Shown here piece by piece: positions 24,887-63,243 of a DNA stretch of 64,000 bases (positions within the stretch are counted from its first letter, which is position 1; each line of letters starts with the position of its first letter). Below the pieces are notes generated by a model that searched no databases, was not told the origin of the DNA, and saw only the letters and a program-made list of their open reading frames with translations. The DNA comes from an uncultured Chloroflexia bacterium (GTDB lineage Bacteria > Chloroflexota > Limnocylindria > Limnocylindrales > CSP1-4), in NCBI GenBank assembly GCA_963719145.1, contig CAVRAX010000001.1, forward strand, positions 71,544 through 135,543, written 5' to 3'. The translations under genes were made by a program, and so were the position numbers.

Positions 24887-24887
24887 A

Positions 24888-30113: not shown

Positions 30114-30728
30114 ATGAGCGAGCGACCGAGCGACGCCTCCGAAGGGCCGATCGAGGGCCACGGCGAAGGGCCGGCCACCGACGATGATGGCCGCGGCGAA
30201 GAGGACTTCCCTCTCGAGGATGACGGCAGCATCGAAGCAGACGCGCCCGAGGAGACGGGCGACGCCGGTTGGGGCGGAAACGCAGACGATGAGTCGGCAG
30301 GCGAGGAGCAGGAACGCGACGAGGCCGCGGCGGTGGCGGCCGAAGCCGACATCGAACGGCATCGGGGCATGCGCCCAAGCGAGCGACGGGCCGCGCGGTC
30401 CCATGCCGAGCGCTCCCAGATCCAGGTCGATCCGTCCCTCCGGATCCGGGACCGAGCATCGTCCCTGTTCGTGCTGGTGACGGTCCTCGTCTTCGGCCTG
30501 ATCTTCCTCAACGGGTTGGTCCTCGGCAAGGGCGGCCTCCTGACCCCATTCCAGACGCCCACGCCGGTCCCGGTCCTGACGCCCTCACCGTCACCGAGCG
30601 AGACTCCGAGCTCCTCGCCGGCACCGACGAGCACGTCGGTTCCGCTACCGACTGCGACGCCAGTGGCGACATCAGAAGTGACGGCGGCACCGAGCGCCGC
30701 CCCCACTGCGACACCCGGCGCCTCCTGA
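30114..30728 (+). CDS. Hypothetical single-pass membrane protein with an acidic N-terminus and a Pro/Thr/Ser-rich C-terminal tail
   Basis: 204 aa. The cytoplasmic part is D/E-rich, followed by one TM helix (LFVLVTVLVFGLIFLNGLVLG), then PT-repeats. Confidence 0.5.
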   Translation: MSERPSDASEGPIEGHGEGPATDDDGRGEEDFPLEDDGSIEADAPEETGDAGWGGNADDESAGEEQERDEAAAVAAEADIERHRGMRPSERRAARSHAERSQIQVDPSLRIRDRASSLFVLVTVLVFGLIFLNGLVLGKGGLLTPFQTPTPVPVLTPSPSPSETPSSSPAPTSTSVPLPTATPVATSEVTAAPSAAPTATPGAS

Positions 30729-43006: not shown

Positions 43007-43936
43007 TCAGAGCGCTCCCGGCGCGCGCGACGGCGCCGCGCCGGGCGCCGAGAGTCCCCCGGTCTCCCCGGGCGGCCGGAGCCACCGACCGACCGCGGAA
43101 CGGAGGAAGGGCAGGACGCCGACGAGCATGGACGGGCTGATCGACCAGTAGATCGGGAGCGCGAGGGCGGAGCCGGCGGCGACCGTCCAGCGCCAGTTCC
43201 GCCATGCGCCGATGGCAAGGATCGCCACCGCGAACGGGAGCCGGGCGAAGAACGGCAGGTACCAGGGGTCGGGCGTCGGCGGAGCGTAGGCAGTCAAGAG
43301 GTGGATGTAGCCGACCCATCGATCCGGCCAGATGACCGCGGTGACGACCGCGATGAGCCCGCTCACCCCGAGGGCGATCGCGACGTGGCGCCACTCGCGG
43401 CGGAGCACGAACCACAGGAGGCCCAGGGCGGGTGTGAGCTTCGTCAGGATCACGAAGGCCCAGGTCGCGGGCCAACGGAAGCTCTTCACCACCGCGAGGG
43501 CCAGGAGGAGCTGGATGTTGCCGGCGTTGATCTCCGAGGCGACCGGGAACGTGAGGAGCGCCGCCAGGGTCAGCGGCCCGGCGAGGTAGACGAGCACGCC
43601 CAGCAACATGGCGCGATAGATCGCCACGAACGTCTCGAACGGGATCAGCCGGCTGATCCCGGCGACGAGCTCGAAGGCCGGGCTGTACACGTAGCCAGTT
43701 ACTCGCCAGTCCTCGCCGGTCGGGTACAGGGCATCCGGGTTGGCCGACCAATACGCGCGGACGTCGCCCGGGTCGCCGCCACCGGTCGTGAGCAGCCACC
43801 AGTAGTAGATCGCCAGGGCGATCCCGAGCCCCGTCGCGATGCGACTCGCGAACGGCGCCGCGCGCGCCGCCCGTTCACGTGCGGCGGCAAGCCGGCCGGC
43901 TTCGGAGGACGAGGCTGCGCCCACGGGCCAGCTCAT
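43007..43936 (-). CDS. DUF2029/GT87-like GT-C membrane glycosyltransferase (paralog group A)
   Basis: Internal ATG MSWPVGAASS... overlaps the upstream gene's stop (ATGA). Contains DVRAYWSANPDALY and GNIQLLLALAVVKSFRWP...ILTKLTPALGLLWFVLRREWR. Confidence 0.7.
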   Translation of the reverse strand: MSWPVGAASSSEAGRLAAARERAARAAPFASRIATGLGIALAIYYWWLLTTGGGDPGDVRAYWSANPDALYPTGEDWRVTGYVYSPAFELVAGISRLIPFETFVAIYRAMLLGVLVYLAGPLTLAALLTFPVASEINAGNIQLLLALAVVKSFRWPATWAFVILTKLTPALGLLWFVLRREWRHVAIALGVSGLIAVVTAVIWPDRWVGYIHLLTAYAPPTPDPWYLPFFARLPFAVAILAIGAWRNWRWTVAAGSALALPIYWSISPSMLVGVLPFLRSAVGRWLRPPGETGGLSAPGAAPSRAPGAL

Positions 43937-45041
43937 CGCGCCACCCGGCCTTCCCGGGCGACCGCGATCAGCGTGGTCCAGTACGCGGCGACGTAGGTGA
44001 CCGGCGGGATGAGCTGGACGAAGGGCACGGCCGTCGCGATCGGGACGATGGCTGCCCAGCGATGCCCGCGCGAGATCAGCCATGCGACGGGCAGGAGGAG
44101 CATCAGCGCGTAGTGATCCCACAGGATCGGCGAGATCAGCTGGGAGGCGATCACGACCGCCAGGTATGAGGCGACCGGCGTGCAGCGCAGAGTCGCCCAC
44201 AACAGCACAACCGCGACCGAGGCCCAGTTGGCGATCTGGACGACCCAGGCGAGGGCCTGCCCGGCACCGGCCTCGAATGCGACTCGACCGGGGGTGAAGT
44301 TGTGGGGCGTGTCGATCGGCTTGCTGACCCGGGCGAGGAGCGTCGCCTGGTCGATCCACGAGGACGGGCCGGCGACGAGCGTGGCGGCCAGGGCCAGGAC
44401 AGCCAGGACGGCGATGCCCACGACGACCGCACGGCGGCGACCGGTAAGCACCGCCCAGCCGAACAGGAGGAAGGGCTGGATCTTGATCGCGGTCCCGACC
44501 GCGGTTGCGGTGCCGAAGCGCCACGGGCGGTCCATCCAGCGCCAGCCGATCGCAAACGTGAGCAGCAGGATCGGACCGACCTGGCCGAGCTTGATCGCGT
44601 AGACCAGGGGCCAGGACAGGCCGCCGAGCATGAGGATCGCCCAGCGGATCGTCCGGCTGACCGGCAGGATGGCCACCGCCACGACGAACGTCGCGCCGAG
44701 GATCGCGGTGAAGATCCAGGCGGCGACCGGGGGATCCACGATTGACAGCGGGGCCGCGAGAAGCACGAACGGCGGCGGGTAGTAGAAGAGCCCGAACGCG
44801 CCCGTGTACTCGAACGACTGGTCGTACAGGATCCCACCGTCGAAGAAGCGCCGGACGGCTGAGTCGTAGGACAGGAAGTCGAAGCCGAGCGTGCCGGCCT
44901 GAGCGGCCGCGATCACGGCGGACCCGGTGACCAGCGCGAGTGTCGCGATCGCAACGATCGGCAGGGCGGCGGCGGCAAGGCGACCAGGGTCAAGGGCGGT
45001 CGCTCCGCCGCGATCCGCGGGCGCCGCCGGTAGGCCCACGC
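43933..45041 (-). CDS. DUF2029/GT87-like GT-C membrane glycosyltransferase (paralog group B)
   Basis: Contains FDFLSYDSAVRRFF...ILY and ...AIKIQPFLLFGWAVLTGRRR. The start is a TTG/GTG overlapping the upstream GT2 stop. The track's N-terminal extension was discarded. Confidence 0.65.
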
Positions 45042-45869
45042 TCAACCCTGGACGCGCCGGTGGAGGAGCGGGATCCGAAAGAGGTCCCACGCGACTCGCA
45101 CGGCCAGGCGCAGGCCCGGGTGCATCCGGGAGCCGTGGACGTCGGACCAGCGGACCGGCACGATGGCCAGCCGGCAGCCGAGCCGCCGGGCCAGGTGGAT
45201 CAACTCGACGTCGAAGACGATCGAGGTGACCAGCTGACGCGAGAAGATCTCGCGTGCCGCATCCCGGCGGAAGCCCTTGAAGCCGCACTGCGTGTCCTGG
45301 ACCGGACCGACCACCCAGATGGAGGCGAGCGTATGGAACAGCCGGCCGAGGAGGCGGCGGTAGCCGGGCTGCGAGGCGCGCATGTCCGAGCCGTCCGGCT
45401 GGATCCGGCTGCCGAGGGCGACGTCCGCGCCGGGCTCATCGGCGTTCCCGGCGAGGGCGGCGAGGAGCTTCGGCAGCTCATCGGGCGGGGTGGCCATGTC
45501 GGCATCGGCGAATACGACCACATCGCCACCGGCGGCCAGCATTCCCGCCCTGACGGCCGCGCCCTTGCCGCCGTGTGGCACCCGCAGGAGCTCAAGGCGG
45601 AGGGGCGCGTCCTCGGGAACGGCCGCCTCGGGCCGGTCGAGGACGAGGTGAGCGGTCCAATCGGTGCTGCCGTCGTCGACGACGAGGACCTGGACACTGG
45701 GCGGGAGCGGCGGGTCGACGCTCGCGGCCGGGCCCCGAAGCCAGCCGAAGAGCTCGTCCAGCGCGGGCCCGATCCGGGCGGCCTCGTTGTAGGCCGGCAG
45801 GACGAGGGTCAGCCGCTCGAACGAGAAGGGCGTGGCGGATTGCACGCTCGAGCTCGATGTCAACGCCAT
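45042..45869 (-). CDS. GT2 glycosyltransferase, Dpm1/GtrB-like polyprenol-phosphate sugar synthase
   Basis: Contains LTLVLPAYNE and a DxD (VVDDGSTD, FADADM). Confidence 0.85.
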   Translation of the reverse strand: MALTSSSSVQSATPFSFERLTLVLPAYNEAARIGPALDELFGWLRGPAASVDPPLPPSVQVLVVDDGSTDWTAHLVLDRPEAAVPEDAPLRLELLRVPHGGKGAAVRAGMLAAGGDVVVFADADMATPPDELPKLLAALAGNADEPGADVALGSRIQPDGSDMRASQPGYRRLLGRLFHTLASIWVVGPVQDTQCGFKGFRRDAAREIFSRQLVTSIVFDVELIHLARRLGCRLAIVPVRWSDVHGSRMHPGLRLAVRVAWDLFRIPLLHRRVQG

Positions 45870-45970
45870 TGAGCGGCCAGTCTAGCCGCGCCGCCACCCC
45901 CGGCGACCACCCGATCGTCCGGTCCCGGCCTGCCTCGTCGGTCGCGCGGGGCGCGTGGATTGTGCCTCTG

Positions 45971-46215
45971 GTCAGGCGGAGCGGGTCGGATCCGCGCCCG
46001 TCAGGCGGGGCGGGTCGAATCCGCCCTCGTCAGGTATGCACCTCGGCGGAATGGTCTCCAAGTGGCGGACGGCGGCGTCGGATCTGCCCTCGTCAGGTAT
46101 GCACCTCGCCGGAATGGTCTCCAAGTGGCGGACGGCGGCGGGTCGGATCCGCCCTCGTCAGGTATGCACCTCGCCGGAATGGTCTCCAAGTGGCGGACGG
46201 CGGCGGATCGCGGGC
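45971..46215. repeat. Intergenic tandem repeat: two ~26-bp units followed by three 63-65-bp units
   Basis: Unit: ccctcgtcaggtatgcacctcgccggaatggtctccaagtggcggacggcggcgggtcggatccg. The short units (cgggtcgRatccgcccNcgtcagg) resemble a tRNA T-arm plus 3' acceptor (GGCGG-GTCGAAT-CCGCC-CTCGTCA). Confidence 0.75.
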
Positions 46216-46229
46216 ATCCTGACTCGTCG

Positions 46230-47426
46230 TCAGCCAGTCGTGGCCGGCGCCAGGGCAGGGCTCGGAGGCGCGCCGCGCCGCAAGGACAGCCAGAGGAGCA
46301 GCAGCGCGCCGGCGGTGGGCAGGCCGCGGTTCACGATCCAGCTGAGATCGCCGAGGGCCGTCTGCTGGCCGCCGGACATGAGGAGGTACGCGAGGCCGAG
46401 CCAGGCGATGGGGCGACCCTCGGCAAGGAGCAGGAGGAAGGGCAGGACCAGGATCGCGAGGTAGTGATGGTAGAGGCCCGGGGCGACGAGGATCGAGACG
46501 AGGACGGCGACCGTGAAGCTCATCCGGGCGGTCAGGCGCAGGGCGGCCCAGGCGAGGAGGACGAGGCCGACACCGGTGATGATGAGCCGGGCCGCGGTGA
46601 AGTCGAGATATGACGCCAGCCAGACCGTGGGGGCGAGGGTGTCGGTGGTGTCCTTGGGGGCCGACAGGTTCGCCAGGACGGTCGGGTAGTCCAGCCACGG
46701 CTGGACGCCGGTGAACGGCAGAGCCAGGAGCGTCGTCGCGATGACCCCCACGAAGACGAACGCCGCGCCCTGCCATCGGCGGGTTACGAGGAACCACAGG
46801 AGCAGGAGGCCCGGGAACACCTTGACGACCGCGGCGACCCCGACGGCGATGCCGGCAAGTCGCTCGCCGCGAGGGCTCGCGTCGCGGAGCCCGAGCCAGG
46901 CCAGGCCCAGCAGCCCGAGCAGGAGCAGGTGCACGTTGCCGAGGACAAGCTCGCCGATGACCGGCGGGAACCCGATCGCGGCCGCGACGAGCACCCATGA
47001 GCCGAGGCCGGTCGCGCGGCGGACCCGGTCCGTCAGCCCCTCTGCCCGGGCGATGGCGAGGACCGTGGTGACGAGGATCGCGAACCCGAGGGCGGTCCAG
47101 CCCCAGGCCGCGAGGCGGTAGTCAGCAGGGCCGATGGCGGCCCAGCGCGACACGAACCCGGCAAGGGGTGGCGGGTAGAGGAAGCCGTTCTGGCCCTGCG
47201 GCGCGTATGGCCCGGCCAGCTGCTCAGCCGAGTAGATCGGCTCACCCCGCAGCAGCGCCGCGCCGGCCCGCCAGTAATACGAGAAGTCGTAGCCCCACTG
47301 GGCCTGGCCGGTGAAGACGACGAACTGGACGAGCCGGAAGCCGACGAGGATCGCAGCGGCCACGATGAGCACCTGGCGTCGCACGCGCGGCTGGCCGAGC
47401 AGGCGGACCCCATACAGGTTCGACAT
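46230..47426 (-). CDS. DUF2029/GT87-like GT-C membrane glycosyltransferase (paralog group B)
   Basis: Contains the DUF2029 hallmark YDFSYYWRAGAALLRGEPIYS and ...GNVHLLLLGLLGLAWL...VVKVFPGLLLLWFLVTRRW. Confidence 0.7.
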   Translation of the reverse strand: MSNLYGVRLLGQPRVRRQVLIVAAAILVGFRLVQFVVFTGQAQWGYDFSYYWRAGAALLRGEPIYSAEQLAGPYAPQGQNGFLYPPPLAGFVSRWAAIGPADYRLAAWGWTALGFAILVTTVLAIARAEGLTDRVRRATGLGSWVLVAAAIGFPPVIGELVLGNVHLLLLGLLGLAWLGLRDASPRGERLAGIAVGVAAVVKVFPGLLLLWFLVTRRWQGAAFVFVGVIATTLLALPFTGVQPWLDYPTVLANLSAPKDTTDTLAPTVWLASYLDFTAARLIITGVGLVLLAWAALRLTARMSFTVAVLVSILVAPGLYHHYLAILVLPFLLLLAEGRPIAWLGLAYLLMSGGQQTALGDLSWIVNRGLPTAGALLLLWLSLRRGAPPSPALAPATTG

Positions 47427-47452
47427 CGCGGATCCAACCCTAGCAGCGGGCG

Positions 47453-48320
47453 GTGCCCGGGATGCGCGTGCCGCGGGTCGGGAACTCCTATCCTCGGCGC
47501 ATGATGGCGGCTGCGCTGTGGCTTCAATTCCGCCGCCCGGTACGCCACGCGCTCAGCGTCGTCGGGCTCGTGGGCCTGATCGTCCTGCTGCTGAACCCCG
47601 ACGCTCACGGCCAGGACGCCCACGCCTACTGGTCGTTCGATCCGGCCGATCCGTATGCCCTTTCCCACGGCACGGTCACGGCGCAGGATGCGTTCCTGTA
47701 CTCCCCGGCCGTGGCCCTCCTCTTCGTTCCCTTCCACGCGCTGCCCTGGACCGTGTTCATCACCGGCTGGACCCTGCTCCTCGCCGGCGCGGCGATCTGG
47801 CTTGGACGGTCGTGGGGGCTCGCGCTGCTCGCCCTCTACCCCGTCCTGCTCGAGGTCGGCTACGGCAACATCAGCCTCCTCCTGGCCGTGGCCATCGTGG
47901 TCGGGTTCAGGCGACCGGGCGCCTGGGCCGTGGTGCTCCTGACGAAGGTGACCCCGGGGATCGGGCTGTTCTGGTTCGTCCTCCGCCGAGAGTGGGCCGC
48001 GCTGGCGGAGGTCCTGGTTGTCGTCGCGGCGGCTGTCGTCATCTCGGCGCTGATCGTTCCGGACCTGTGGCCGCAGTGGTTCCGCCTCCTCGCGGAATCG
48101 TCGACTCTCCCCGACCCCGGGGCATTCGGGATGGTGCCGCGGTGGGCTCCGCTACGGACTCGCCTTCGTGTTGGTGGCCTGGGGCGCCCGGACGGACCGG
48201 CGCTGGCTCGTGCCGATCGCCGCCGGCATCGCGACGCCGGTCTCGTGGCTCTTCGCGCCGATCATGCTCGGGGCGATCCCACTGTGGCGGGAGCGCAGCG
48301 ACGAGGAGGGGCCAAGGTAG
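47453..48320 (+). pseudogene. DUF2029/GT87-like GT-C glycosyltransferase (group A) with a frameshift near 48140
   Basis: The N-terminal ~230 aa match the paralogs (DAHAYWSFDPADPY, GNISLLLAVAIVVGFRRP...LLTKVTPGIGLFWFVLRREW). After ...PDPGAFG the conserved C-terminus (LRYGLAFVLVAWGARTDRRWLVPIAAGIATPVSWLFAPIMLGAIPLWRER...) continues in a different frame and ends at 48320. Confidence 0.55.
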
Positions 48321-48329
48321 GATCCGCGG

Positions 48330-50630
48330 ATGCGGCGAAACGGGGTCCGCGTCGCTGTCCTCCTCCTGACCTGCTACCTCGTCCTCGTGGGCGGAAGCTG
48401 GTTCGGGCTGTATCTGAGCTCGCTTCGGACGGCTCGGTGGCGCTCGCCGCGATGACCTGCGGTATGGGGCGATCGTTGCCTGGCGGTTCGCCGGAATGGC
48501 GCCCCAGGAGCGCGCTGCTGCCGGCGATCGGCGTCGCCCTCGCCTCGCTCGCGGCCTCGACCGCCTTGTCGCGCTTCCCCCGGCAGTCCGTCGAGTACCT
48601 CGGCTACGCCGTCATCCTCGCCGCCCTCTACCTCCTGCTCGTCAGGATCCTGGCCGAACCCTTTCCTCCGCGGTCGGATGGGCGCCGCGGCCGTCGTCCT
48701 GTGCGCGGCCTGTCATCGCGTTCGTCTGGCTCACCGTCTCGCACTGGGTGGGATGTGGGCCCTCGTCGGCCGAGTGACCGTGCCGCCGCTTCGACCCGCC
48801 TTCGAGAGCCTCAGCTTTGGCAACCCGGCAGCCGCGCTGGCGATCACTGGTCCTGCTGCTGGCCTCCGTGCTCGGCATCGCGGATATGGGATCCCGCCTC
48901 CGATGCGTCGCCGGGCGTCCTGGCCTGCTCTGGTGCTGGCGTTCGTGATCATCGCGAGCGGCTCGCGTGCAGGCTGGCTGGCGGTCAGGATCGCGGTTCG
49001 TCGTGATCCCGGCCCTCGCGATGCGAAGGCCCGGGCGTCGGCGGCAGGTCCGCGCGACGGCCCATCGATCCTGGCGGAGCACCTCGGCGCCGGCTTGTGC
49101 TGGCGGGCCTGGCGGTCCGGGCTGGTCGGGAGCTGGCCATGCTGGCCCGGGGATCCTCGAGCGCCGGTGACCGGCGGCGAGAGCGATGCGGACCGCCTAT
49201 CTCAGCGCGGCCCTGCGGATGTTCGCAGAGTCGCCGATCCTGGGCACGGGACCGGGGACGTGGGTGATCCAGCGCGTCCGCTACACGGAGTCGTCCGAGG
49301 ACGGACTACTACATCCCGCACGCCCACAACATCTACCTCCAGACGCTGTCCGAGCTCGGGATCGCGGGCGCGCTTGCCGGGGTCGTCTCGTCGTCGGCCT
49401 GGCCGTGCTCGCGCGGGGGGCGATCAAGGATCCGGACCCAGCTCGACGCACTGGGGCTGGTTGGCGGCGATCGTGCTCATCTACCTCGCCGTCCATCAGC
49501 TGTTCGACTTCTACGCCAACATGCCGGCCATCCTGTTCGCCGCGGCGCTCCCCGTGGCCTGGCTGGACGCGACGCGCCGGGATGATCGGAGCGGCGTCCG
49601 ACGGCCCGGCCCCCGGAGGATCCGGATCGCGGCGATCGGCGCGGTCGGGGCGATCGGCGCGGTCGGGGCGATCGCGGTGGCCTGCGGGGGCCTCCTGCTC
49701 TCGGAGAGCGCAGCCATGACCCACGAGACGGCCGTCGCCGCGTACGAGGCAGGCAATTGGGCCCGCGCCGATGACCTGGCCCAGCAGGCCGATGTCGCGG
49801 ATCCAGCGTGGCCCCCGTATCAGCTGACCGAAGGTCTGACCGCCGCGGCTGTCGGCGACCACGCGCGGGCGGCGGCCAGGCTCCGTCGCGCCGCCGAGGC
49901 GGACGATCTCCCTGAAGCCTGGCTCGACCTGGCCGCCGAGGAGAGGCTCATCGGCCATGAAGCGGCGGCCCGGGACGCTCTTGGCCGCTCCGCTCGCCTG
50001 GGGCTCCAACGCCCGGCGCTGGCAATGGCGATCGGGGACCTCGCGATGCGCCTCGGCGACGATCAGCTGACGCTGACCGCGTTCGCTGCCGCTCTGGCGA
50101 GGATCCCGAGCCTCGCCGGCGATCCGTGGTGGCGCGGCGAGCCAGATCGAGCAGCCTTGTTCCCGGCCATCCTCGACGCGGGCATCGCCCGGGCCGGCGC
50201 GGGCGCGAGATGGCAGATCGCCCTGGCCGCGGGTGACATCGAAAAGGCTCGGTCCCTTGCCGGTGTCTCACGTGTCGGCGGCTCCGTCACGGCCGCCGAC
50301 GTGATCGACGCCTGGGACGGCGACGCGACGGCGATGGAGCGCGTGATCGCCGGCTGCGAGCAATTCCCGACGATGGCGGCCGTGATCGACTGGTGCGCCC
50401 GCCTTTCCGCCCGTGACGGAAACTCCGCGGAGGCAGACAGGTACCGCGCGTGGTCGTTCCCGTTGCTCGGCGAATCGACCGGCCCGTTCGAGGTTCGCGT
50501 CAGCGAGGGTCCCGTCCTGGGCAGCGCCATCCAGGGTGATGTCGCCGCCTTCTACGGCACCTACACCTATCGCCGGACGACGCCCTGGAATCTCCTGGTC
50601 CCGAGCCTTGTCCAGCTCAAGCTGACGTAG
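48330..50630 (+). pseudogene. O-antigen ligase/polymerase-like (Wzy_C) membrane protein with a C-terminal TPR-like domain, disrupted by at least 5 frameshifts
   Basis: ATG at 48330 gives MRRNGVRVAVLLLTCYLVLVGGSWFGLYL, then a stop. Wzy_C signatures are spread over three frames. These include ...RRRASWPALVLAFVIIASGSRAGWLAV, ...AESPILGTGPGTW and ...HAHNIYLQTLSELGIAG. The 49600-50630 portion (TPR-like, AAYEAGNWARAD...) is in a single frame. Confidence 0.55.
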
Positions 50631-50682
50631 GCCACCGGTACCATTGCGCCGACGCACCACCCGCGCCTAGGCTGGCCCGCGA

Positions 50683-52074
50683 ATGATCCGACGTCACGCC
50701 ATCGGGTTCCGGACGCTGCTCATGCTCGTCGACGGCACGCTCGCGGCCGTCGTCCTGGGCGCGGTTTCGTTCGCCCGATTCGGGCCCGACTGGTACGGCC
50801 GGTGGCTGCCGTATGTCAAGGAACCATGGGGATTCGGGGTCATCTTTGCCGCGGGCTGGGTGTCGGTCCTGTGGCTGCACGGCCTGTATCGGCCACGTGC
50901 CCGATGGACGATTCGGAGCGAGGCGCTGGCTCTCGCTCGGGCGACGTTCGTGACGGCCCTCGTCACACTCAGTGTGCTCTTCGTCATGCGGCTCCCGGAC
51001 ATCAGCCGGTCCTATCTCGTCCTGCTCTTCCCCGTCCAGTGGGGCGTTGGCCTCGCGACTCGCATCGTTCTGCGATACGCGTTCATGCGATTGCGTGAGC
51101 GCGGTTACAACCTCCGATACGTCCTCGTCATCGGCGCAGGCCCCAAGGCGCAGGCGTTCGCCGCAAAGCTCGAGGATCACAAGGAGCTGGGCCTGCGAAT
51201 TCACGGCTTCCTCGACGACGACGATTGGGATCTCGCCCGCGGCTGGAAGCTGCTCGGACGTATCGACACGCTCCAAAGCGTTCTCCACGACCGCGTGATC
51301 GATGAGGTCGTGATCTGCCTTCCGTTCGACCAGTGGGATCGGGTGAACGCGATCGCCCACCTCTGCGAGGAAGAGGGCAAGATCGTCCGCGTCCCCGTGG
51401 ATGTCCTCGACCGCGCGTTTGCAGCCGGCCGCGTCGAGGAGCTCGACGGGACGCCGGTCTACTCGATGATCTCGGGACCCGATCGGGTCGCCGCCCTCGT
51501 CGTCAAGCGCGTCTTCGATGTCGTCGTGACGGTTCTCGCGATGGTCGCCGGCGCACCGATCTTCTTCTCCGTCGCGCTGCTGGTCCGGCTGCGCGCCGGG
51601 TCTCCGATCTTCTTCCGCCAGGAGCGGGTGGGCCTCCATGGCCGGCGCTTCCAGGTCGTCAAGTTCCGAACCATGACGGTCGACGCCGAAGAGCAGTACG
51701 CGGACCTCGTGGCGAAGTCCGACCCCCGCGCCTTCAAGCTGGCCGACGACCCCAGGATCACGCCGACCGGCCGGTTCCTCCGCCGGACGTCGCTCGACGA
51801 GCTGCCCCAGCTGTGGAACGTCCTGAAGGGCGAGATGTCCCTCGTCGGGCCGCGACCGGCACCGCCCAGAGAGGTGGAGGGGTACGACCTCTGGCACCGC
51901 CGCCGGCTCTCGATGAAGCCCGGGATCACCGGTCTCTGGCAGGTCACCGACCGCCGGTCGGAGGTCTTCGACGACCGGGCCTTGCTCGACCTCTCGTACA
52001 TCGACCGCTGGTCGCTCTGGCTCGACGTCAAGATCCTGGCCCGGACCATTCCCGCCGCCTTCGATGGCCGCTAG
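50683..52074 (+). CDS. Polyprenyl-phosphate sugar phosphotransferase (WbaP/WcaJ-like initiating transferase)
   Basis: N-terminal TM segments, a CoA_binding_3-like domain and a Bac_transf C-terminus (FRQERVGLHGRRFQVVKFRTM...DELPQLWNVLKGEMSLVGPRP). Confidence 0.9.
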   Translation: MIRRHAIGFRTLLMLVDGTLAAVVLGAVSFARFGPDWYGRWLPYVKEPWGFGVIFAAGWVSVLWLHGLYRPRARWTIRSEALALARATFVTALVTLSVLFVMRLPDISRSYLVLLFPVQWGVGLATRIVLRYAFMRLRERGYNLRYVLVIGAGPKAQAFAAKLEDHKELGLRIHGFLDDDDWDLARGWKLLGRIDTLQSVLHDRVIDEVVICLPFDQWDRVNAIAHLCEEEGKIVRVPVDVLDRAFAAGRVEELDGTPVYSMISGPDRVAALVVKRVFDVVVTVLAMVAGAPIFFSVALLVRLRAGSPIFFRQERVGLHGRRFQVVKFRTMTVDAEEQYADLVAKSDPRAFKLADDPRITPTGRFLRRTSLDELPQLWNVLKGEMSLVGPRPAPPREVEGYDLWHRRRLSMKPGITGLWQVTDRRSEVFDDRALLDLSYIDRWSLWLDVKILARTIPAAFDGR

Positions 52075-52103
52075 GGCGTAAGGAGGGCCGGCGGCTGAAG
52101 CAG

Positions 52104-54242
52104 GTGCTGTTGCGTCGGGGATCGATCGCGGTGTCGGAGGTCCCGGCGCCGCTCGTGGAGGCCGGAACGGTCCTCGTCCGGGTCGCGTACTCGGCGATCT
52201 CCGCGGGTACCGAGATGAGCGGCATCCGCCACAGCGGAGCGCCGCTCTGGCAGCGTGCCCTCCGCCAACCGCAGAAGGTCGCCAAGGTCGTCGAGACCGT
52301 CGCGACGCGCGGCATTGGGGCGACTCGTCGGATCGTCGAGGCGCGGCTGGACTCGCCCGAGGCCGTCGGCTACTCCGCTGCCGGCGTCGTCGTCGAGGTC
52401 GGCGACGGCATCGACGACCTGCAGCCGGGCGATCGCGTCGCCTGTGCGGGCGCCGGCCACGCGCACCACGCCGAGGTGATCCGCGTGCCGCGAAACCTCG
52501 TCGTACCGGTGCCCGACGGCCTGGGCTTCGATGCGGCGAGCACCGTCACGCTCGGGGCGATCGCCCTCCAGGGCATCCGCCGGGCGCAGCCCACGATCGG
52601 CGAGACCTTCGTCGTGATCGGGCTCGGCATCCTCGGCCAGCTGACCGTCCAGCTGCTCCGGGCGAGCGGCTGCCGGGTCATCGGCGCGGACCTCGATACG
52701 AGCAGGGTGAAGCTGGCCCTCGACCTCGGCATGGACATGGCCCTCGGTGCCGACGCCCCGGACGGGCCCGAGACGGTCGCGCGCCTGACCGACCGGGTCG
52801 GGGCCGACGGCGTGATCGTGACCGCGGCGACCCGCTCCAGCGACGTCGTGGCAAGTGCCTTCCGGATGTGCCGGAAGAAGGGGCGCGTCGTGGTCGTCGG
52901 GGACGTGGGCATGGACCTGGACCGCGCCGACATCTACGCGAAGGAGCTGGACTTCCTCATCTCGACGTCCTACGGCCCCGGCCGCTATGACCGGCGCTAC
53001 GAGGAGGAGGGCCTGGACTATCCCGTCGGCTACGTCCGCTGGACCGAGAACCGCAACATGGCCGAGTACCTCCGGCTCGTCGCCGACGGCCGCGTGAACG
53101 TCGCCGACCTGATCTCCGCCCGCTACGACGTCGGCTCGGCGCCCGAGGCCTATGCCGCGCTCACGTCGGGTGACCAACGGCCGCTCATCACCCTGCTCCG
53201 CTACCCCGAAGCCGAGACCGGGGAGGCGGTAGTCCGGACCGTCCCGGCGTCCCGCCCGGCGCCGCTCAGGGACGGCGTCGTGGGCGTCGCGATCGTGGGC
53301 GCCGGAGCCTTCGCGAGCGCTGTTCACCTGCCCAACCTCGAGGCCATGCCCGACCGCTTCCAGGTCCGCGCCGTCGTGGGGCGGGCCGGTCACCGGGTCA
53401 CGGCGCTGGCGGATCGGCTCGGCGCCGCCTACGGCACGACCGACTACCCCCGCGTCCTCGACGATCCGGCGATCGACCTGGTCCTGATCGCGACGCGCCA
53501 TGACAGCCACACGGCGCTGGCGCTCCAGGCGCTCGGTCGTGGCAAGCACGTGTTCGTCGAGAAACCGCTTGCGCTCACCCGCGAGGAGCTCGACCAGGTC
53601 TCAGGCTTCTACGCCTCCTACGCCGAGACGGCGCCGATCCTCACGACCGGCTTCAACCGCCGCTTCTCGCCGCACGCAAGCCGACTGCGTGAGCTCGTCG
53701 GCGGGCGCCACGGCCCGATGGTCCTCGACTACCGGATGAACGCCGGGCACATCCCTGCCGACAGCTGGGTCCAGGGCCGCGAGGGCGGCGGCCGCAACCT
53801 CGGCGAGGCCTGCCACATCTACGACCTCTTCACGTTCCTCGCGGACAGCCCGGTGGTCGACGTCCACGCGACGCCGATCCGGCCCAGGGGCCGAGCCGTG
53901 CTGCCGACGGACAACTTCGCGGCGACGATCCAGTTCGAGGACGGGTCCGTCGCGACACTGACCTACACGGCCCTCGGGTCGGCAGACCATCCCAAGGAGC
54001 AGCTCGAGGTCTTCGTGGACGGCCGGGTCCACGTCCTGAACGACTACCTCACCCTGGAGAACCCCGGCTCGCAGGAACCCGGGGTCCGCACCCGGGTCCA
54101 GGACAAGGGCCATCGCGCCGAGCTGGAGGCCGTCGGCACGGCCCTCCGGGCCAATGGCCCCTGGCCCATCCCGCTCTGGCAGCAGGTGCAGGCGACCGAC
54201 GTCGCCCTCCGCGTCGAGGCGTACCTCCGGGCCGACGCCTGA
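52104..54242 (+). CDS. Bi-domain oxidoreductase: Zn-dependent alcohol-dehydrogenase-like (MDR) N-terminus fused to a Gfo/Idh/MocA C-terminus
   Basis: Contains a GroES-like ADH_N domain (GDRVACAGAGHAHHAEV). Two Rossmann folds are present (VIGLGILGQ and VAIVGAGAFAS), plus the GFO_IDH_MocA motif (FVEKPLALT). The start is a GTG near 52104. The upstream 770 nt of the track ORF are an artefact overlapping the sugar transferase. Confidence 0.85.
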   Translation: MLLRRGSIAVSEVPAPLVEAGTVLVRVAYSAISAGTEMSGIRHSGAPLWQRALRQPQKVAKVVETVATRGIGATRRIVEARLDSPEAVGYSAAGVVVEVGDGIDDLQPGDRVACAGAGHAHHAEVIRVPRNLVVPVPDGLGFDAASTVTLGAIALQGIRRAQPTIGETFVVIGLGILGQLTVQLLRASGCRVIGADLDTSRVKLALDLGMDMALGADAPDGPETVARLTDRVGADGVIVTAATRSSDVVASAFRMCRKKGRVVVVGDVGMDLDRADIYAKELDFLISTSYGPGRYDRRYEEEGLDYPVGYVRWTENRNMAEYLRLVADGRVNVADLISARYDVGSAPEAYAALTSGDQRPLITLLRYPEAETGEAVVRTVPASRPAPLRDGVVGVAIVGAGAFASAVHLPNLEAMPDRFQVRAVVGRAGHRVTALADRLGAAYGTTDYPRVLDDPAIDLVLIATRHDSHTALALQALGRGKHVFVEKPLALTREELDQVSGFYASYAETAPILTTGFNRRFSPHASRLRELVGGRHGPMVLDYRMNAGHIPADSWVQGREGGGRNLGEACHIYDLFTFLADSPVVDVHATPIRPRGRAVLPTDNFAATIQFEDGSVATLTYTALGSADHPKEQLEVFVDGRVHVLNDYLTLENPGSQEPGVRTRVQDKGHRAELEAVGTALRANGPWPIPLWQQVQATDVALRVEAYLRADA

Positions 54243-54243
54243 G

Positions 54244-56118
54244 ATGTGCGGGATCGCGGGAATCATGCGGCTGGGCGAGGGCCCGCCGGTGGATCCGGGG
54301 CTGGTCACGAGGATGCGCGACACGATGGCCCACCGCGGGCCCGACGGCGCGGGGACCTGGGTCGCCCGGACGGCGGATCGGCCTCGGGTTCCGGCGCCTC
54401 GCGATCATCGACCTCTCGAGCGCGGCCGCCCAGCCGATGGCGAACGAGGACGGATCGCATCCATCTGGTCTTCAACGGCGAGATCTACAACCACGCCGAG
54501 ATCCGCCGCGAGCTCGAGGCGATCGGCGGACACACCTGGCGGACCGACCACTCCGACACCGAGATGATCCTGCACGCGTACGAACAGTGGGGCATCGACT
54601 GCCTGCAGCGGTTCCGCGGGATGTTCGCGTTCGCGCTCTGGGACGCGCGCGCCGAGCGCTGTGGCTCGTCCGGGACCGGATCGGCATCAAGCCGCTCTAC
54701 TACGCGTTCCACGACGGCCGGCTCGCCTTCGCCTCGGAGATCAAGGCGCTGCTCGGCGATCCGGACCAGCCGCGGGCCGTGGACGAGGAGGCCTTCTTCC
54801 ACTACCTGTCGTTTCTGACGACACCGGCCCGCTCACGCTCTTCGAGGGCATCCACAAGCTGCCGGCCGGCACCTGGCTGCGCATCCGAGCCGGGGCGATC
54901 GAGGAGCGCCGGTACTGGGACGTCTGGGACCACGCCGCCGCTCCGGGGTGTGTCACGAGGAGATCGCCGAGCGGGTCCTCGATGAGCTGCGCACGGCCGT
55001 GCAGCTCCGCAAGGTCAGCGACGTGCCGGTCGGCGTGTTCCTGTCCGGCGGGATCGACTCGAGCACCAACGCCGCGCTGTTCTCCGAGGGCGAGCGGCGC
55101 CCGTGAAGACCTTCTCGATCGGCTACGACGGCGATACCAGAGCTACAAGAACGAGCTCGACTACGCGCGCGCATGGCCGCCGAGGTCGGGGCCGAGCACC
55201 ACGAGCTGCGCCTGACCCAGGACGACCTGTCGAGTTCCTGCCGCAGATGGTGCAGCTCCAGGACGAGCCGATCGCCGATCCGGTCTGCGTCCCCGTCTAC
55301 TACGTCTCGAAGCTGGCGCGGGAGAACGGGGTCGTCGTCGCCCAGGTCGGCGAGGGGGCCGACGAGCTGTTCTGGGGCTACCCGACGTGGAAGCGTGCCC
55401 TCCGCCTGCAACGGCCGATGACCTCCCGGTGCCGCGATCGCTCAAGCGGCTCGGCCTGCCGGGTCTGCGACGGCCGGGCGGGACCGGGGGATGGCTTCGA
55501 GTGGCTGCGCCGCGGGGCCGCCGGCCAGCCGGTGTTCTGGGGCGGGGCGGAGGCGTTCACCAGCGCAGAAGGAGCTGCTCCTGTGGCCGCGCCTCCGAGC
55601 GCCGTTCGCCGGGCCCACGTCGTGGGACGCGCTCGAGCCGATCCGGCGGCGCTTCGAGGCCGGCGCGTGGGAGCGTCGGCCTTGCACTGGATGACCTACC
55701 TCGACCTCAATCTCCGTCTGCCCGAGCTGCTCCTGATGCGCGTCGACAAGATGAGCATGGGCGTCAGCCTCGAGGGCCGCGTGCCGTTCCTCGACCACAG
55801 GTTCGTCGAGCTCGCGATGGGCATCCCGGCCGCGGTGAAGACGCGGGGCGGGACGCTCAAGTACGTCCTCAAGAAGGCGGTGCGGGGCGTCATCCCCGAC
55901 GAGCTGATCGACCGTCCCAAGCAGGGCTTCGGCGTTCCCGTCCACGAGTGGTTCTTCGACCGGCTCGGCACTGAGGCCCGCAGGGAGCTGGACGCGTTCT
56001 GCGCCAGACCGACTTCCTCGACGCGGGAGGCGTGCGGGCGACGCTCGACGCGGGCCACGGACCCCAGGCGTGGTACCTGCACAACTTCGCGATGTGGTGG
56101 CAGGAGTACGTGGCGTGA
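54244..56118 (+). pseudogene. asnB: Asparagine synthase (glutamine-hydrolysing, AsnB/WbpS-like) disrupted by at least 7 frameshifts
   Basis: Starts MCGIAGIMRLG (a Ntn-hydrolase N-terminal Cys) 1 nt after the oxidoreductase stop. Conserved blocks lie in alternating frames. These include IHLVFNGEIYNH...RGMFAFALWD, RIGIKPLYYA, GTWLRIRAG and VPVGVFLSGGIDSS. Others are VQLQDEPIADP, MSMGVSLEGRVPFLD and KQGFGVPVHEWF. It ends WWQEYVA-stop at 56118. Confidence 0.6.
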
Positions 56119-57404
56119 TGGTGGGGCCGAACCAACGTGGCCTCCGGGCGATCCGCTCGTCCCTCTCCGGCGAAGCGGGCGTCTCGCTGGCCCGCGACGT
56201 CGGTGCGACGATGGGCAACCGTATCCTCCTCATCGGGATCGGCATTGTCACATCGGTCATCGTCGCCAGGACCCTGGGGCCAAGCGGTCGCGGGATCTAT
56301 GCGGTCGCCGTCGCCCTGACGGCGATCTGCGTCCAGTTCGGCAATCTCGGCCTGCATGCCTCGAACACCTGGGCGGTCGCACGGAGACCCGACCTCCTCG
56401 GGACGCTGATCGCCAACAGCCTGCTGGTCAGCGCCGCGCTGGGCGGCGGCATCGCGGTCCTCGTCCTGCTCCTCGTCGTGGCATTCCCGCACCTGATCGT
56501 GCTGCCCACCGCGGTACTTGTGCTGGCACTGCTCGCGATCCCCGCGAACCTGGCGTACCTGCTGCTCCAGAACCTCCTCCTTGGCACGCAACGTATCCGG
56601 TATTTCAACGGCGTGGAACTGTTGAACCGGGTCGTCGTCGTGGCTGCGTTCGCCGCGGCGATCTGGCTTGGGATCGTGTCGCCGGAGGTCGCAGTCGGAG
56701 CCGGACTGGTGGCCGCCGTGGTGACGACCACCTTGGCCGGCGCCGTCCTCGTGCGCTCGGCCGGCGGATCGATCGCGCCGAGGCTCGCGACCCTCGTCGA
56801 GAACAGCCGATACGGATTCCGCGCCTACTCCGCGGCGCTCTTCTCATTCCTCGTCCTTCGGGCGGACTTGCTGCTGGTCAACTACTTCCGGGGTGCGACG
56901 GACACCGGTTACTACTCGATCGCAGTCTCACTCGCAGATCTCGTGTACCTGCCGCCGGTCGTTATCGGCTCGATGCTCTTTCCGAGGCTCGCCGCGATGA
57001 AGGACTCGACCGAACGTCGGGCGCTTACGAACGCGAGCCTCGTCGTCACTTTCGGCGGAATGCTGCTCGCTGTCGTTGCAGCTTCCCTGCTCGGCGACTT
57101 TGGTGTCCGGCTCCTCTTCGGGGCCGAGTTCGAACCAGCTGTCCCAGCCTTCCTGTGGCTGCTGCCTGGGATCCTCGCGCTCTCTGCCTACACGGTGCTT
57201 TCGAGCTTCTTTGCGGCCATAGGATTTCCAGCGATTTCAATACTCGCTCCCCTGGCCGGGTTTTGCGTCGCCGTCGTACTCGATATCGCATTGATCCCCC
57301 GCCTCGGCGTGGTCGGCGCCTCAATCGCTTCATCCACCGCATATGGGCTGATGATCGTGACCGCTCTGCTTGCGTACCGAAATCTCAGGGAGCCAACGAT
57401 CTGA
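56118..57404 (+). CDS. Wzx-like oligosaccharide flippase (MOP superfamily polysaccharide biosynthesis protein)
   Basis: 12+ TM segments with Polysacc_synt-like organisation. Its ATG overlaps the asnB stop by 1 nt (TGATG). Confidence 0.8.
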   Translation: MVGPNQRGLRAIRSSLSGEAGVSLARDVGATMGNRILLIGIGIVTSVIVARTLGPSGRGIYAVAVALTAICVQFGNLGLHASNTWAVARRPDLLGTLIANSLLVSAALGGGIAVLVLLLVVAFPHLIVLPTAVLVLALLAIPANLAYLLLQNLLLGTQRIRYFNGVELLNRVVVVAAFAAAIWLGIVSPEVAVGAGLVAAVVTTTLAGAVLVRSAGGSIAPRLATLVENSRYGFRAYSAALFSFLVLRADLLLVNYFRGATDTGYYSIAVSLADLVYLPPVVIGSMLFPRLAAMKDSTERRALTNASLVVTFGGMLLAVVAASLLGDFGVRLLFGAEFEPAVPAFLWLLPGILALSAYTVLSSFFAAIGFPAISILAPLAGFCVAVVLDIALIPRLGVVGASIASSTAYGLMIVTALLAYRNLREPTI

Positions 57405-57483
57405 TGCGGCATCCGAAGGCGTCCGGGGGCACCAATTGTCCCAGTCGAGCCCAAGGTGCGTGCCTCGGCCCGTGGGGCGAGGC

Positions 57484-58377
57484 ATGAGGAGTGGTCGATC
57501 GCGGTGCCTTGCTCATGTCACCGCACGCCAGGGCAAGATTTATCGCCCTGCTGCGATCAAGGCGAATACCGTCAGCGTCTGGGGTGCGTCGCCTGCTGGC
57601 TCCGCGCATGTGAAAGGGGGCCTCGACGGTTCTCAAGACGCCTTCGATCTGGCGCGACAAGTTCGGAGCCAGCACGAGCTAACATGGATTGCCGAGCTGA
57701 TTCCATTTGAGAGCTTCCGGGGTCGTGATGTCCTCGAGGTCGGCTGCGGTGCCGGATTCGACGCGTATGAGTTCGTGCGCCACGGGGCTAGGTATGTCGG
57801 GATCGACATCGTTCCCGCCAACATCGACCTAGCTCACCGCCACTTGGCCCACCACGGGCTCAGCCCCAAGTTGTTGGTGGGCGATGCCGAGCACGTGCCA
57901 TTCGAAGATGAGTCGTTCGATTTCGTCTACTCGAACGGTGTTCTCCATCACACCCCCGACCTGCCACGCGCGATATCAGAGGCAAGGCGGGTGCTCAGAC
58001 CGGGCGGACGTCTTTGTGTAAGCCTCTACCACCGCAACTCCGCTTTCTATTGGCTGACGTTGTTCCTGGAGCAACACGTGATCCGGGGAGGATTCCGAAG
58101 GCGAAGTTTCCGGGACAGAGTCGCGATGATCGAGCACACGTCGAGTGGTGCTTTGCCGCTGGTAAATACGTACTCGAAGTCTGACGTCCGGCACCTCCTG
58201 GAAGCAAGCGACTTCGAGATCCGGCGGGTGGTCGTCAGGAAGTTACGACCGGAAGACCTCCCCACATTGCCGGTTCTGGAATTATTGTGGCACCTCATTC
58301 CCCAGGGGACCCTTGACACGCTCGGGCGTCGATTCGGCTGGTATGTCATCGCCTCGGCGAGGAGACCTGTGAAATGA
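57484..58377 (+). CDS. Class I SAM-dependent methyltransferase
   Basis: Contains motif I (VLEVGCGAGFDA) and motif II (LRPGGRL). The start is uncertain. The track start at 57370 overlaps the flippase gene. Confidence 0.75.
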   Translation: MRSGRSRCLAHVTARQGKIYRPAAIKANTVSVWGASPAGSAHVKGGLDGSQDAFDLARQVRSQHELTWIAELIPFESFRGRDVLEVGCGAGFDAYEFVRHGARYVGIDIVPANIDLAHRHLAHHGLSPKLLVGDAEHVPFEDESFDFVYSNGVLHHTPDLPRAISEARRVLRPGGRLCVSLYHRNSAFYWLTLFLEQHVIRGGFRRRSFRDRVAMIEHTSSGALPLVNTYSKSDVRHLLEASDFEIRRVVVRKLRPEDLPTLPVLELLWHLIPQGTLDTLGRRFGWYVIASARRPVK

Positions 58378-59969
58378 GACGAACCCTGACGATCGTGCGG
58401 GGTTCCACTCGCGAGCGACCGACTAGCGACACAACTGTCATCGAATTCGAGCAGCTGCGTACCTGGATCGGGCTCCGTACGATCTGGAGTCATCTATTTC
58501 GCTATACCGATGTCACGCTCAGAGTCGCGTGTGCGGAGATGCTGACGCGTCCCCTCTTCACCCTCTTGCTGATCCGAGTCCTCTCTCGTGGTCAGTGCGA
58601 GATTGTCGACGACCATGGGGCGAAGTCCGCCGTCAGCGTCCGCACGCTCGGGCACGCGTGTGCTCAGTACCTGCGCGATGCGCTCTCGATCCAGCGTGCC
58701 CGTGAAACGTCTAAGAGGCAACTCGAGCAGGTAGTCAGAGATTTAGGCCGCGCGCCAGCGATGGCTTCAGGTGCTCGACGTTCCCGGCCGGTGTACGTGC
58801 ACGCAAATCCGCTCAGAGGTCTGGTGTCTGGTGGCTCGGTAGGGCACATCGCGGGGGTGCTCAACAGCCTTGACACGCTCATCGGGTCACCCATCGTCCT
58901 AACGACCGACCGCACGCCAACGGTTCGAGAGGGTATCGAGACGCACGTTATTCGACCGAACCGATTCAGAGACTTCCCCGAAATTCTCAGAGTCGCCTTC
59001 AATTCGGAGCTCTTGCCACAAGCGATATCTCTTGTTGATGAGCGCGATCCTGCCTTCGTTTACGAGCGCTACAGCGAGTTCAGCTACACGGGCGCGATGC
59101 TCGCCCGGGAGTGGTGCGTCCCGTTTGTGCTCGAGTACAACGGCTCGGAGGTCTGGATTGCTCGCCATTGGGGACGGCCTTTGGCGAACGAAAGCCTTGC
59201 CGCTGAGATCGAGATGGCGAACCTGCGCGCCGCGGACCTCATCGTCGCGGTGAGCGAGGTCATGAAAGACGGACTTGTCGATCGGGGCGTCGATCCCGGG
59301 AAGATCCTGGTAAACCCAAACGGCGTAGATCCCAAGCGTTATGCACCCGATGTTGACGGGTCGGCGATCCGGGCTCGGCTCGGTCTCGACGGCAAGGTCG
59401 TCATCGGGTTCATCGGGACGTTCGGGCCCTGGCATGGCGCCGAGGCACTCGCCAAGGCATTCGGGCTTCTCCTGGCCAAACGGCCAGACTTCCGGGAGCA
59501 CGTCCGGCTGCTGATGATCGGCGACGGAGCGCGCTTCGAGGCGACGCGGCGGGAGATCGCCGCTCGAGGCGTCGAGTCGGAGACGATCCTCGTGGGTCGA
59601 ACCCCCCAGGAAGACGGCCCTGCGTACCTCGCCGCCTGCGACATCCTGGCTTCACCCCACGTGCCGAACGCTGACGGCTCTCGCTTCTTCGGGTCGCCGA
59701 CCAAGCTCTTCGAATACATGGCGATGGGCAAGGCGATCGTCGCCTCTCGCCTCGAGCAGATCGGCGAGGTCCTTGAGGACGATCGGACGGCCGTCCTCGT
59801 GGAGCCCGGCGACGCGGCGGAGCTAGCGAGCGCGCTCGAGGCGCTCATCGACGACCCGGAGCGTCGCGCGCGCCTCGGGGTCGCGGCGCGGGAGGAGGCG
59901 GTTGCCAACCACACCTGGCTTGATCACACTCGCCGGATCCTGGATCGCGTGGCCGCGCTCGGCGCCTGA
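58374..59969 (+). CDS. GT4 (GT-B) glycosyltransferase with a ~130 aa N-terminal extension
   Basis: Contains the GT4 C-terminal motifs (SPTKLFEYMAMGKAIVAS, EPGD). ATGA overlap with the methyltransferase stop. Confidence 0.85.
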   Translation: MRRTLTIVRGSTRERPTSDTTVIEFEQLRTWIGLRTIWSHLFRYTDVTLRVACAEMLTRPLFTLLLIRVLSRGQCEIVDDHGAKSAVSVRTLGHACAQYLRDALSIQRARETSKRQLEQVVRDLGRAPAMASGARRSRPVYVHANPLRGLVSGGSVGHIAGVLNSLDTLIGSPIVLTTDRTPTVREGIETHVIRPNRFRDFPEILRVAFNSELLPQAISLVDERDPAFVYERYSEFSYTGAMLAREWCVPFVLEYNGSEVWIARHWGRPLANESLAAEIEMANLRAADLIVAVSEVMKDGLVDRGVDPGKILVNPNGVDPKRYAPDVDGSAIRARLGLDGKVVIGFIGTFGPWHGAEALAKAFGLLLAKRPDFREHVRLLMIGDGARFEATRREIAARGVESETILVGRTPQEDGPAYLAACDILASPHVPNADGSRFFGSPTKLFEYMAMGKAIVASRLEQIGEVLEDDRTAVLVEPGDAAELASALEALIDDPERRARLGVAAREEAVANHTWLDHTRRILDRVAALGA

Positions 59970-59970
59970 C

Positions 59971-63203: not shown

Positions 63204-63243
63204 AGCGCGCTCAGACGGTCAGGCTGTGAACACCGGCCGCCTC

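Follow-up and report, generated by a model that had tools for sequence, protein, structure and literature searches.

The 64-kb stretch of DNA analysed here (the window) contains a surface-glycan locus in which three genes on the + strand change frame and others are uninterrupted. A GT87-like (DUF2029) glycosyltransferase gene, recognized by Pfam GT87 on its stitched translation, lies at 47453 (or 47501) to 48320; it is the fourth GT87 paralog in the window, and its intact orthologs are 276–294 aa long, with identity up to 84%. Next is a gene combining a Wzy_C (O-antigen ligase/polymerase-like) domain with TPRs (48330–50630, ~766 aa if intact). The third, at 54244–56118, encodes an AsnB-type glutamine amidotransferase with an MCGIAG N-terminus. 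Between and beside these genes the frames are whole: a WbaP-like initiating sugar transferase (CoA_binding_3 + Bac_transf; 50683–52074, + strand; 463 aa, equal in length to the version in the comparator L082), a bi-domain oxidoreductase (ADH_zinc_N + GFO_IDH_MocA; 52095–54242, + strand; 715 aa, full-length against its relatives), a Wzx flippase (Polysacc_synt; 56115–57404, + strand; 429 aa, with an identical protein in the contigs L081 and L089), and the methyltransferase and GT4 genes of the locus. The first-pass annotation had described the neighbours of the disrupted genes as uninterrupted, and the WbaP-like, oxidoreductase, Wzx and GT4 genes are indeed all intact. L081, used below, is an independent ENA metagenome contig whose alignment covers window positions 49575–64000; its own WbaP gene has a one-base homopolymer error.

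Both a GC3 frame plot and a six-frame Viterbi segmentation place frame changes on the + strand in all three of the genes that the first-pass annotation had named. Plain tblastn was unable to track these shifts, and we counted them with our own frameshift-aware dynamic-programming alignment of protein to DNA, against intact orthologs. Alignment of the GT87-like gene with its ortholog P0241 establishes a single +1 shift, at 48146, where an additional G appears in TGG[G]CTC; the insertion is also visible against L082, and the variable C-terminal tail may hold a second shift, at 48294. Relative to P0121 (760 aa, Wzy_C; 89% identity to the corrected Wzy over 752 codons), the frame of the Wzy_C+TPR gene shifts at least 16 times, always within 48432–49450. 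In asnB there are 16 net frame changes against the protein P0001 and, at the nucleotide level against L081, 19 deletion events (22 nt) and one 1-nt insertion, for 20 indel events between 54364 and 56006. The earlier estimates, a single GT87 frame switch near 48140 and lower bounds of five shifts in the Wzy gene and seven in asnB, were correct as lower bounds but undercounted the shifts. Elsewhere in the 64 kb we found no further frameshift clusters, and the coding segments defined by GC3 reach their stop codons. A candidate extra region at 30.1–30.8 kb was rejected; it is a low-complexity acidic/proline-rich ORF with no shift.

The lesions form two blocks rather than striking three genes separately. 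Block A (48146–49452, + strand), with at least 17 frame changes, starts in the 3′ end of the GT87-like gene, crosses the intergenic spacer and extends into the Wzy_C membrane domain, disregarding gene boundaries and covering no more than the first half of Wzy. The Wzy shifts are confined to the initial 1121 of 2298 nt (p ~1e-5). The TPR-containing C-terminal half (49453–50630, + strand) has one mismatch to L081 and no frameshifts (0 shifts over 49451–50627 in the ortholog alignment). Among Pfam families, none for TPRs reached the threshold in the window Wzy protein; TPR families are recorded for some of its homologs. The confinement of the Wzy shifts to the first 49% of the gene is not what a loss of constraint along its whole length would produce. 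Block B (54339–56062, + strand) lies wholly inside asnB. The two blocks have a GC content of 71–73%, the same as their flanks, which gives no support to a local GC extreme as the cause of a coverage drop-out.

The indels themselves have a distinctive character. All asnB events are 1–2 nt long, and 14, 5 and 1 of them fall in base runs of 1, 2 and at least 3, respectively (background 57, 31 and 12%). Homopolymer association is the classical nanopore signature, and spontaneous frameshift mutations likewise gather in base runs; the first-pass annotation had proposed such a link, and we see no enrichment over the run-length background. The deleted bases in asnB are biased to A/T (14 of 22 nt, p = 0.002), and apart from this bias no recurring motif at the deleted bases was found by eye. 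Block B consists almost entirely of deletions (19 versus 1), whereas in block A insertions and deletions are about equal; these differing profiles are awkward to square with a single error process. There are no tandem repeats at the shift sites, and the sole array in these genes, at 49625–49674 (period 9/18), is in frame. Phase-variable glycan genes resemble this locus in having frameshifts in surface-glycan genes, but in phase variation each gene is switched by a single long homopolymer or short-repeat tract, and here each of the heavily disrupted genes has many shifts and no such tract. We therefore reject phase variation by slipped-strand mispairing, as no long homopolymer or short tandem repeat lies at the shift sites.

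Comparison with L081 places block B in a revealing context. Outside asnB the two sequences differ by 12 mismatches and one indel in ~12.7 kb, and identity is 99.9% on either side of the block; inside 54339–56062 there are 192 mismatches (11.1%) and 23 indel columns. At its two ends asnB matches L081 perfectly (the first 95 nt and the last 56 nt), and the indel range falls exactly within the substitution range. Divergence is even along the block, where the longest stretch of identity is 40 nt, and the substitutions fall at codon positions 3, 1 and 2 in the numbers 119, 45 and 28 (62% at position 3), giving a dN/dS of 0.22. On this alignment, block B has the marks of a sharply bounded, recombinant-type allele segment under purifying selection in a near-identical background. 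Such a bounded divergent allele is established for block B alone, as the only comparator for block A is L082, which is 4–16% divergent throughout. Mosaic polysaccharide loci show the same pattern as the bounded 11% divergent block in its 99.9% background, and WbaP against L082 is a similar mosaic. Ordinary allele replacement keeps reading frames, as WbaP does, and the indel overlay of block B is something extra. WbaP thus serves as a natural-allele control: because it differs by 15.6% between the window and L082 with zero net frameshift, natural allele replacement alone does not bring frameshifts here.

These observations bear directly on the possibility, raised in the first-pass annotation, that the three genes have decayed in place after selection was lost on part of the glycan pathway. 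Inactivated O-antigen genes occur in host-adapted lineages, and as in known surface-glycan pseudogenes, wzy-like, glycosyltransferase and amidotransferase genes are frameshifted here while their neighbours are intact; that three functionally related genes of one locus are struck and others spared is what such decay would look like. However, asnB flanks 99.9% identical to L081 around an interior that is 11% divergent and biased to position 3 indicate allele replacement rather than decay since the split from L081, the lesion blocks cross or split genes, and conserved residues are unharmed. We regard decay in place as barely conceivable; for asnB it is refuted by the bounded 11% block, the 62% of substitutions at position 3 and a corrected protein that keeps every conserved residue scored and has no stop.

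When the indels are corrected, the proteins appear to be those of working genes. The corrected AsnB keeps 244 of the 244 columns with conservation of 97% or more across 120 homologs, and has 0 in-frame stops; real AsnB homologs deviate at 1.6 of these columns on average. It differs from P0001 at 74 amino acids, and at 68 of these its residue also occurs in other homologs. Pfam matches cover Asn_synthase 2–352 of 354 (E = 1e-88) and GATase_7 2–122 of 123, and the AsnB-type assignment holds only after indel correction, when both domains are full-length and accompanied by the N-terminal Cys (MCGIAG at 54244). The corrected Wzy keeps 84 of 85 conserved columns and has one stop, in a stretch where the alignment is locally ambiguous; it matches Wzy_C 1–146 of 149 (E = 8e-19) and is colinear with orthologs of ~760 aa. 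The conserved blocks of asnB and Wzy are thus colinear with intact orthologs, as the first-pass annotation had reconstructed them, and the corrected translations give full-length Pfam matches. The allele in block B is complete, evenly divergent and of functional type, and the indels superimposed on it come with no sign of relaxed selection.

This preservation also weighs on the idea that the lesions are genuine but came from elsewhere: that dead or dying asnB and GT87/Wzy alleles were imported from a related lineage, or that imported alleles were hit by a very recent burst of indels. The exact match between the asnB indel cluster and the divergent tract, as if both had arrived together, is consistent with import, as are the clear mosaic allele exchange in the glycan locus and a 19:1 deletion bias like the deletional bias of bacterial pseudogenes; if it were true, the strain would be without the polymerase/ligase-like and amidotransferase steps. 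The frames are disrupted as pseudogenes require (1, at least 16 and 16 net changes in the three genes), but selection is not relaxed (dN/dS of 0.22, conserved columns 244/244 and 84/85, no stops in AsnB) and the lesions do not extend over whole genes, with Wzy affected in its first half only, its TPR half free of lesions, and the ends of asnB clean. Real pseudogenes usually have a single lesion or a handful, frequently located in base runs or produced by IS elements or larger deletions, and gain nonsynonymous changes and stops with age; here there are 16–20 lesions per gene in Wzy and asnB, with no loss of conserved residues. The asnB indels are all 1–2 nt, larger deletions are absent and the events lie outside base runs, and block A has no deletion bias. 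As substitutions arise spontaneously several times more often than indels, twenty real indel events should be accompanied by many tens to hundreds of neutral substitutions, with dozens of the conserved residues hit; none is. If the 28 position-2 changes are taken as a guide to how many substitutions may be neutral, indels would stand to these in a ratio of at least ~1:2, far above spontaneous spectra. Import of pseudogenes is thus unlikely.

A different way to couple divergence and indels would be a chimeric consensus of two co-assembled alleles, in which alternation by the polisher between them made indels at polymorphic sites. Other assemblies break at these spots, which suggests co-existing variants: L081 stops at window position 49575, 123 nt from the right edge of block A, and L089 begins at 55352, within asnB. 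That both contigs break at the same places as the blocks suggests strain-level branching there. Against a chimera, the allele diverges from that of L081 evenly along its length, without an identical patch longer than 40 nt, and the corrected protein is a coherent natural-type allele. The median distance from indel to substitution is 4 nt, compared with 3.1 nt at random, and 90% of random sets do as well. On the distance and uniform-divergence tests we reject mixed-allele consensus as the source of the indels in asnB, and we consider the chimeric explanation in general very unlikely.

The explanation that best accommodates these data, to which we assign a probability of roughly 0.7 on sequence comparison, is that the frameshifts are residual long-read consensus indels lying on strain-specific divergent alleles that polishing missed. 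The alleles of the assembled strain in blocks A and B would be ~10% divergent from those of more abundant, near-identical relatives. Reads from these relatives would fail to map on the divergent blocks, leaving single-base indels there unpolished, while the rest of the contig would be corrected to ~99.9% agreement with the population. We infer the long-read source, the poor coverage or polishing in the blocks, and the absence of the indels from the organism's DNA. The Wzx protein is identical also on a contig of >1 Mb, the presumed source of the window; a contig of this length suggests a long-read assembly, with an isolate genome as another possibility. Frameshift-causing indels are a known residual error of nanopore consensus that upsets gene calling, and the usual cure is short-read polishing (PMC9262707).

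The likeness to such assemblies is considerable, if incomplete. As in long-read (nanopore or PacBio CLR) assemblies and MAGs, single-base indels fragment conserved genes here and the presumably polished flanks are clean. Indels of 1–2 nt with few substitutions, the form expected of long-read errors, are what we find, as the substitutions in the block behave as real selected differences; the expected homopolymer enrichment is absent. Published long-read residual errors are mainly in homopolymers and genome-wide, whereas those described here show no preference for base runs and occur in just two blocks (1.3–1.7 kb), at least one of which coincides with a strain-specific allele. The first-pass annotation had offered localised assembly error as its other reading; this was the better one, although not in its homopolymer form, as the asnB indels fall without regard to base runs and coincide exactly with a divergent allele block. 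In a further reading the indels would be real, with fresh imports of asnB and GT87/Wzy alleles that acquired 1–3% single-base indels and essentially no substitutions. This would imply an indel-specific mutagenic process linked to the recombined segment, such as highly error-prone repair synthesis on uptake of 10%-divergent DNA, and would mean that ligation of the polymer and amidation in the glycan pathway are silenced. We consider this extremely unlikely.

Searches for closer relatives returned little. A scan of genome contigs with the intact oxidoreductase gave only matches of at most 63% identity, from many phyla, and the best match to the intact TPR half in a scan of metagenome contigs was 72% over 54 residues. 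None of the proteins encoded by five intact window genes (WbaP-like, GT4, GT87, GT2 and a second GT4) had an exact match on record, and a literature search on two sample accessions was likewise empty. In a collection of 5.8 billion protein clusters the window asnB allele was not found in intact form; the top match there is the L081 allele, and this counts against the residual-error reading.

These results have implications for how the locus is read. Taken at face value, the sequence describes an uncultured high-GC bacterium lacking a Wzy-like ligase/polymerase, one GT87 and an AsnB-like amidotransferase, which would alter any prediction of its surface glycan. The first-pass annotation had cautioned that functional annotation of the three genes from the present sequence is unsafe, and this caution is borne out; annotating them as lost functions would be just as unwarranted. 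Most likely they are intact strain-specific alleles with uncorrected indels, to be flagged as probable sequencing frameshifts and not as pseudogenes. The case also provides a diagnostic that needs no reads: comparison with a near-identical contig, followed by examination of codon-position bias and of family-invariant residues in the indel-corrected translation. If residual consensus error is the correct explanation, the organism would have working GT87, Wzy-like and AsnB-like enzymes and its glycan locus would be complete. The main value of the case is as a caution, and the biology left over is that of a mosaic locus: the glycan locus is a recombination mosaic among close strains, as is expected for such loci.

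At a GC content of ~71%, with third codon positions at ~90%, the reading frame in the window can be followed well by GC3. Both a GC3 frame plot and a stop-codon-penalised Viterbi segmentation of all six frames show orderly genes across most of the 64 kb, with two exceptions on the + strand, at 47.4-49.5 kb and at 54.24-56.11 kb; the latter requires 13 frame segments in 1.9 kb in the Viterbi segmentation. Outside both, each GC3-defined coding segment in the window is closed by its own stop codon. A further candidate site at 30.1-30.8 kb was rejected: the low-complexity ORF there (30114-30728, + strand; 204 aa, acidic towards the N-terminus, with a single hydrophobic segment and a tail rich in Pro, Thr and Ser) has an ambiguous GC3 signal that mimics frame changes in the segmentation.

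GC drops to 60-65% (vs 71%) in two stretches: 57000-59000, which spans a methyltransferase gene and the start of a GT4 gene, and 22800-27000, which holds a very long ORF (21284-24886). A c-di-GMP-II riboswitch (26027-26110, + strand; Rfam RF01786, 65 bits, E = 2e-12), in a stretch of lower GC (62-68%), lies ~75 nt upstream of an ORF (26186-27787, + strand) with MASE9 and HD_5/HD domains that looks like an HD-GYP-type c-di-GMP phosphodiesterase; this arrangement suggests feedback control of c-di-GMP breakdown.

Pfam matches gave the identities and order of the glycan genes. On the - strand, 43.0-47.4 kb holds three intact GT87 (DUF2029) paralogs (43007-43954, 43933-45046 and 46230-47426) with one GT2 gene (45042-45869) among them; with the next gene they form a cluster of four GT87 paralogs (43007-48320) in which only the last copy is frameshifted. 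That copy (47453-48320, +) and the Wzy_C+TPR gene (48330-50630, +), also frameshifted, are followed by a WbaP-like transferase (50683-52074) and a bi-domain oxidoreductase (52095-54242), intact as first described, then by the frameshifted asnB (54244-56118, +), Wzx (56115-57404), and a methyltransferase, a GT4 and a heparinase II/III-like protein.

We placed the shifts using a custom frameshift-aware protein-to-DNA alignment against intact orthologs. The single frame switch claimed for GT87 corresponds to a +1 shift from a surplus G at 48146 (TGG[G]CTC), relative to a 276-aa ortholog (P0241, 84% identity). A weak alternative-frame match to the ortholog's tail makes a second shift possible in the variable C-terminal tail; over 48294-48329, which takes in this tail and the GT87-Wzy spacer, the window lacks 57 nt of the comparator contig L082, in gaps of 16, 5, 4 and 32 nt. 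For Wzy, at least five shifts had been claimed and at least 16 are placed against the ortholog P0121 (760 aa), all within 48432-49450, with none in the 1.18-kb TPR half. For asnB, at least seven grew to 16 net shifts (54364-56006). After correction, identity is 89% for Wzy and 88% for AsnB, AsnB has no in-frame stops, and Pfam matches are full-length; stitched AsnB has thousands of full-length asparagine-synthase-type matches (68-80% identity, 100% of length). Three-frame translations likewise spread the conserved GT87, Wzy_C and AsnB motifs over all three frames. Frame plot, segmentation and ortholog alignment thus uphold the first-pass annotation: the frameshifts are real, local features of the window sequence. 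They form two blocks that ignore gene boundaries, block A (48146-49452, including the GT87 shift) and block B (54339-56062).

The AsnB ortholog P0001 is encoded on an ENA metagenome contig, L081, with the same gene order. L081 aligns in a single piece to 49575-64000, so that block B lies inside this near-identical comparison and block A outside it. Outside asnB, 12 mismatches and one indel in ~12.7 kb give 99.9% identity; the indel, a T added to a TTT run at L081 position 1340 (window 50914), truncates the L081 WbaP call to 374 aa (463 aa in the window and L082) and resembles a classical homopolymer error of the L081 assembly. Within 54339-56062 the alignment shows 192 mismatches (11.1%) and 23 indel columns; relative to L081 the window lacks 22 nt, in 19 deletions of 1-2 nt, and has one additional nucleotide from a single insertion. 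From window 55352 onward, the L081 asnB allele recurs without indels in L089 (Logan ERR11718635), a second and independent assembly.

These substitutions fall 119/45/28 at codon positions 3/1/2, more than half are G/C transversions, and dN/dS is 0.22. Corrected AsnB differs from P0001 at 74 amino acids, 68 of them with a residue that occurs in other homologs. Among 120 homologs, 244 columns reach at least 97% conservation; corrected AsnB matches every one of these, where real homologs lose 1.6 on average. Divergence is uniform, the longest identical run being 40 nt. The window asnB is therefore a complete and distinct allele of functional type, embedded in sequence that is otherwise identical to that of L081, which rules out a copy decayed in place. 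The same uniformity, together with indels that lie no nearer to substitutions than random positions do, fails to support a chimeric consensus of mixed alleles.

The locus is strongly mosaic in general, an indication of frequent allele exchange: against L082 (47964-52279), there is no divergence in the first 102 nt of Wzy, while the TPR half diverges by 3.7% and WbaP by 15.6%, the last with a codon-position-3 bias and no net frameshift. Between the Wzy_C and TPR parts, an in-frame tandem repeat (49625-49674; period 9/18 nt, coding (A/I)GAVGAIG units) is one 18-nt unit longer than in L082, a natural length polymorphism without frameshift.

Substitutions outnumber spontaneous frameshift mutations several-fold, and the latter cluster in mononucleotide runs. 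Were the 20 events within 1.7 kb real, they should therefore be accompanied by neutral substitutions numbering from many tens to hundreds, and the 244 conserved codons should have taken about 40% of those; they show none. In Wzy, no shift lies beyond the first 49% of the gene (p ~1e-5) and 84 of 85 conserved columns are kept, which points in the same direction. Genuine decay, one of the two origins first proposed, is thus unlikely. The main rival, that recombination imported truly dead alleles, accounts for the exact coincidence of the indels with the divergent asnB tract and for the deletion bias of block B, but cannot account for a total lack of relaxed selection.

Most economically, the indels are read as residual long-read consensus errors on alleles specific to the strain. 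Polishing would leave clean sequence wherever the assembled strain matches its more abundant relatives; on a 10%-divergent allele their reads would be of no use, and 1-3% indels would persist in a consensus of low depth. Nanopore consensus frameshift errors are well documented (PMC9262707). As further indirect support for an artefact we count the one-base error in L081 itself, the breaks of other assemblies at 49575 and 55352, and the occurrence of the exact Wzx protein on a contig of >1 Mb. This contig is presumably the source of the window, and its length suggests long reads, though it may also be an isolate genome. L081 stops 123 nt past the final Wzy shift and L089 begins mid-asnB, and these ends of independent contigs from the same population suggest strain-level branching of assembly graphs. 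The weak points are indels without a homopolymer link, a search of the protein collection that found no intact form of the window asnB allele, a block A beyond the reach of the near-identical comparison, and unequal profiles, with insertions equal to deletions in number in block A and almost all deletions in block B. Of the localised assembly error first proposed, the error is likely but its homopolymer kind is not: asnB indels, all of 1-2 nt, fall in runs of 1/2/≥3 bases 14/5/1 times, like the background (57/31/12%); deleted bases are A/T-biased (14/22, p = 0.002). The finding is likely an ordinary artefact, and GT87, Wzy and asnB are best annotated as carrying probable sequencing frameshifts, and not as pseudogenes or lost functions.
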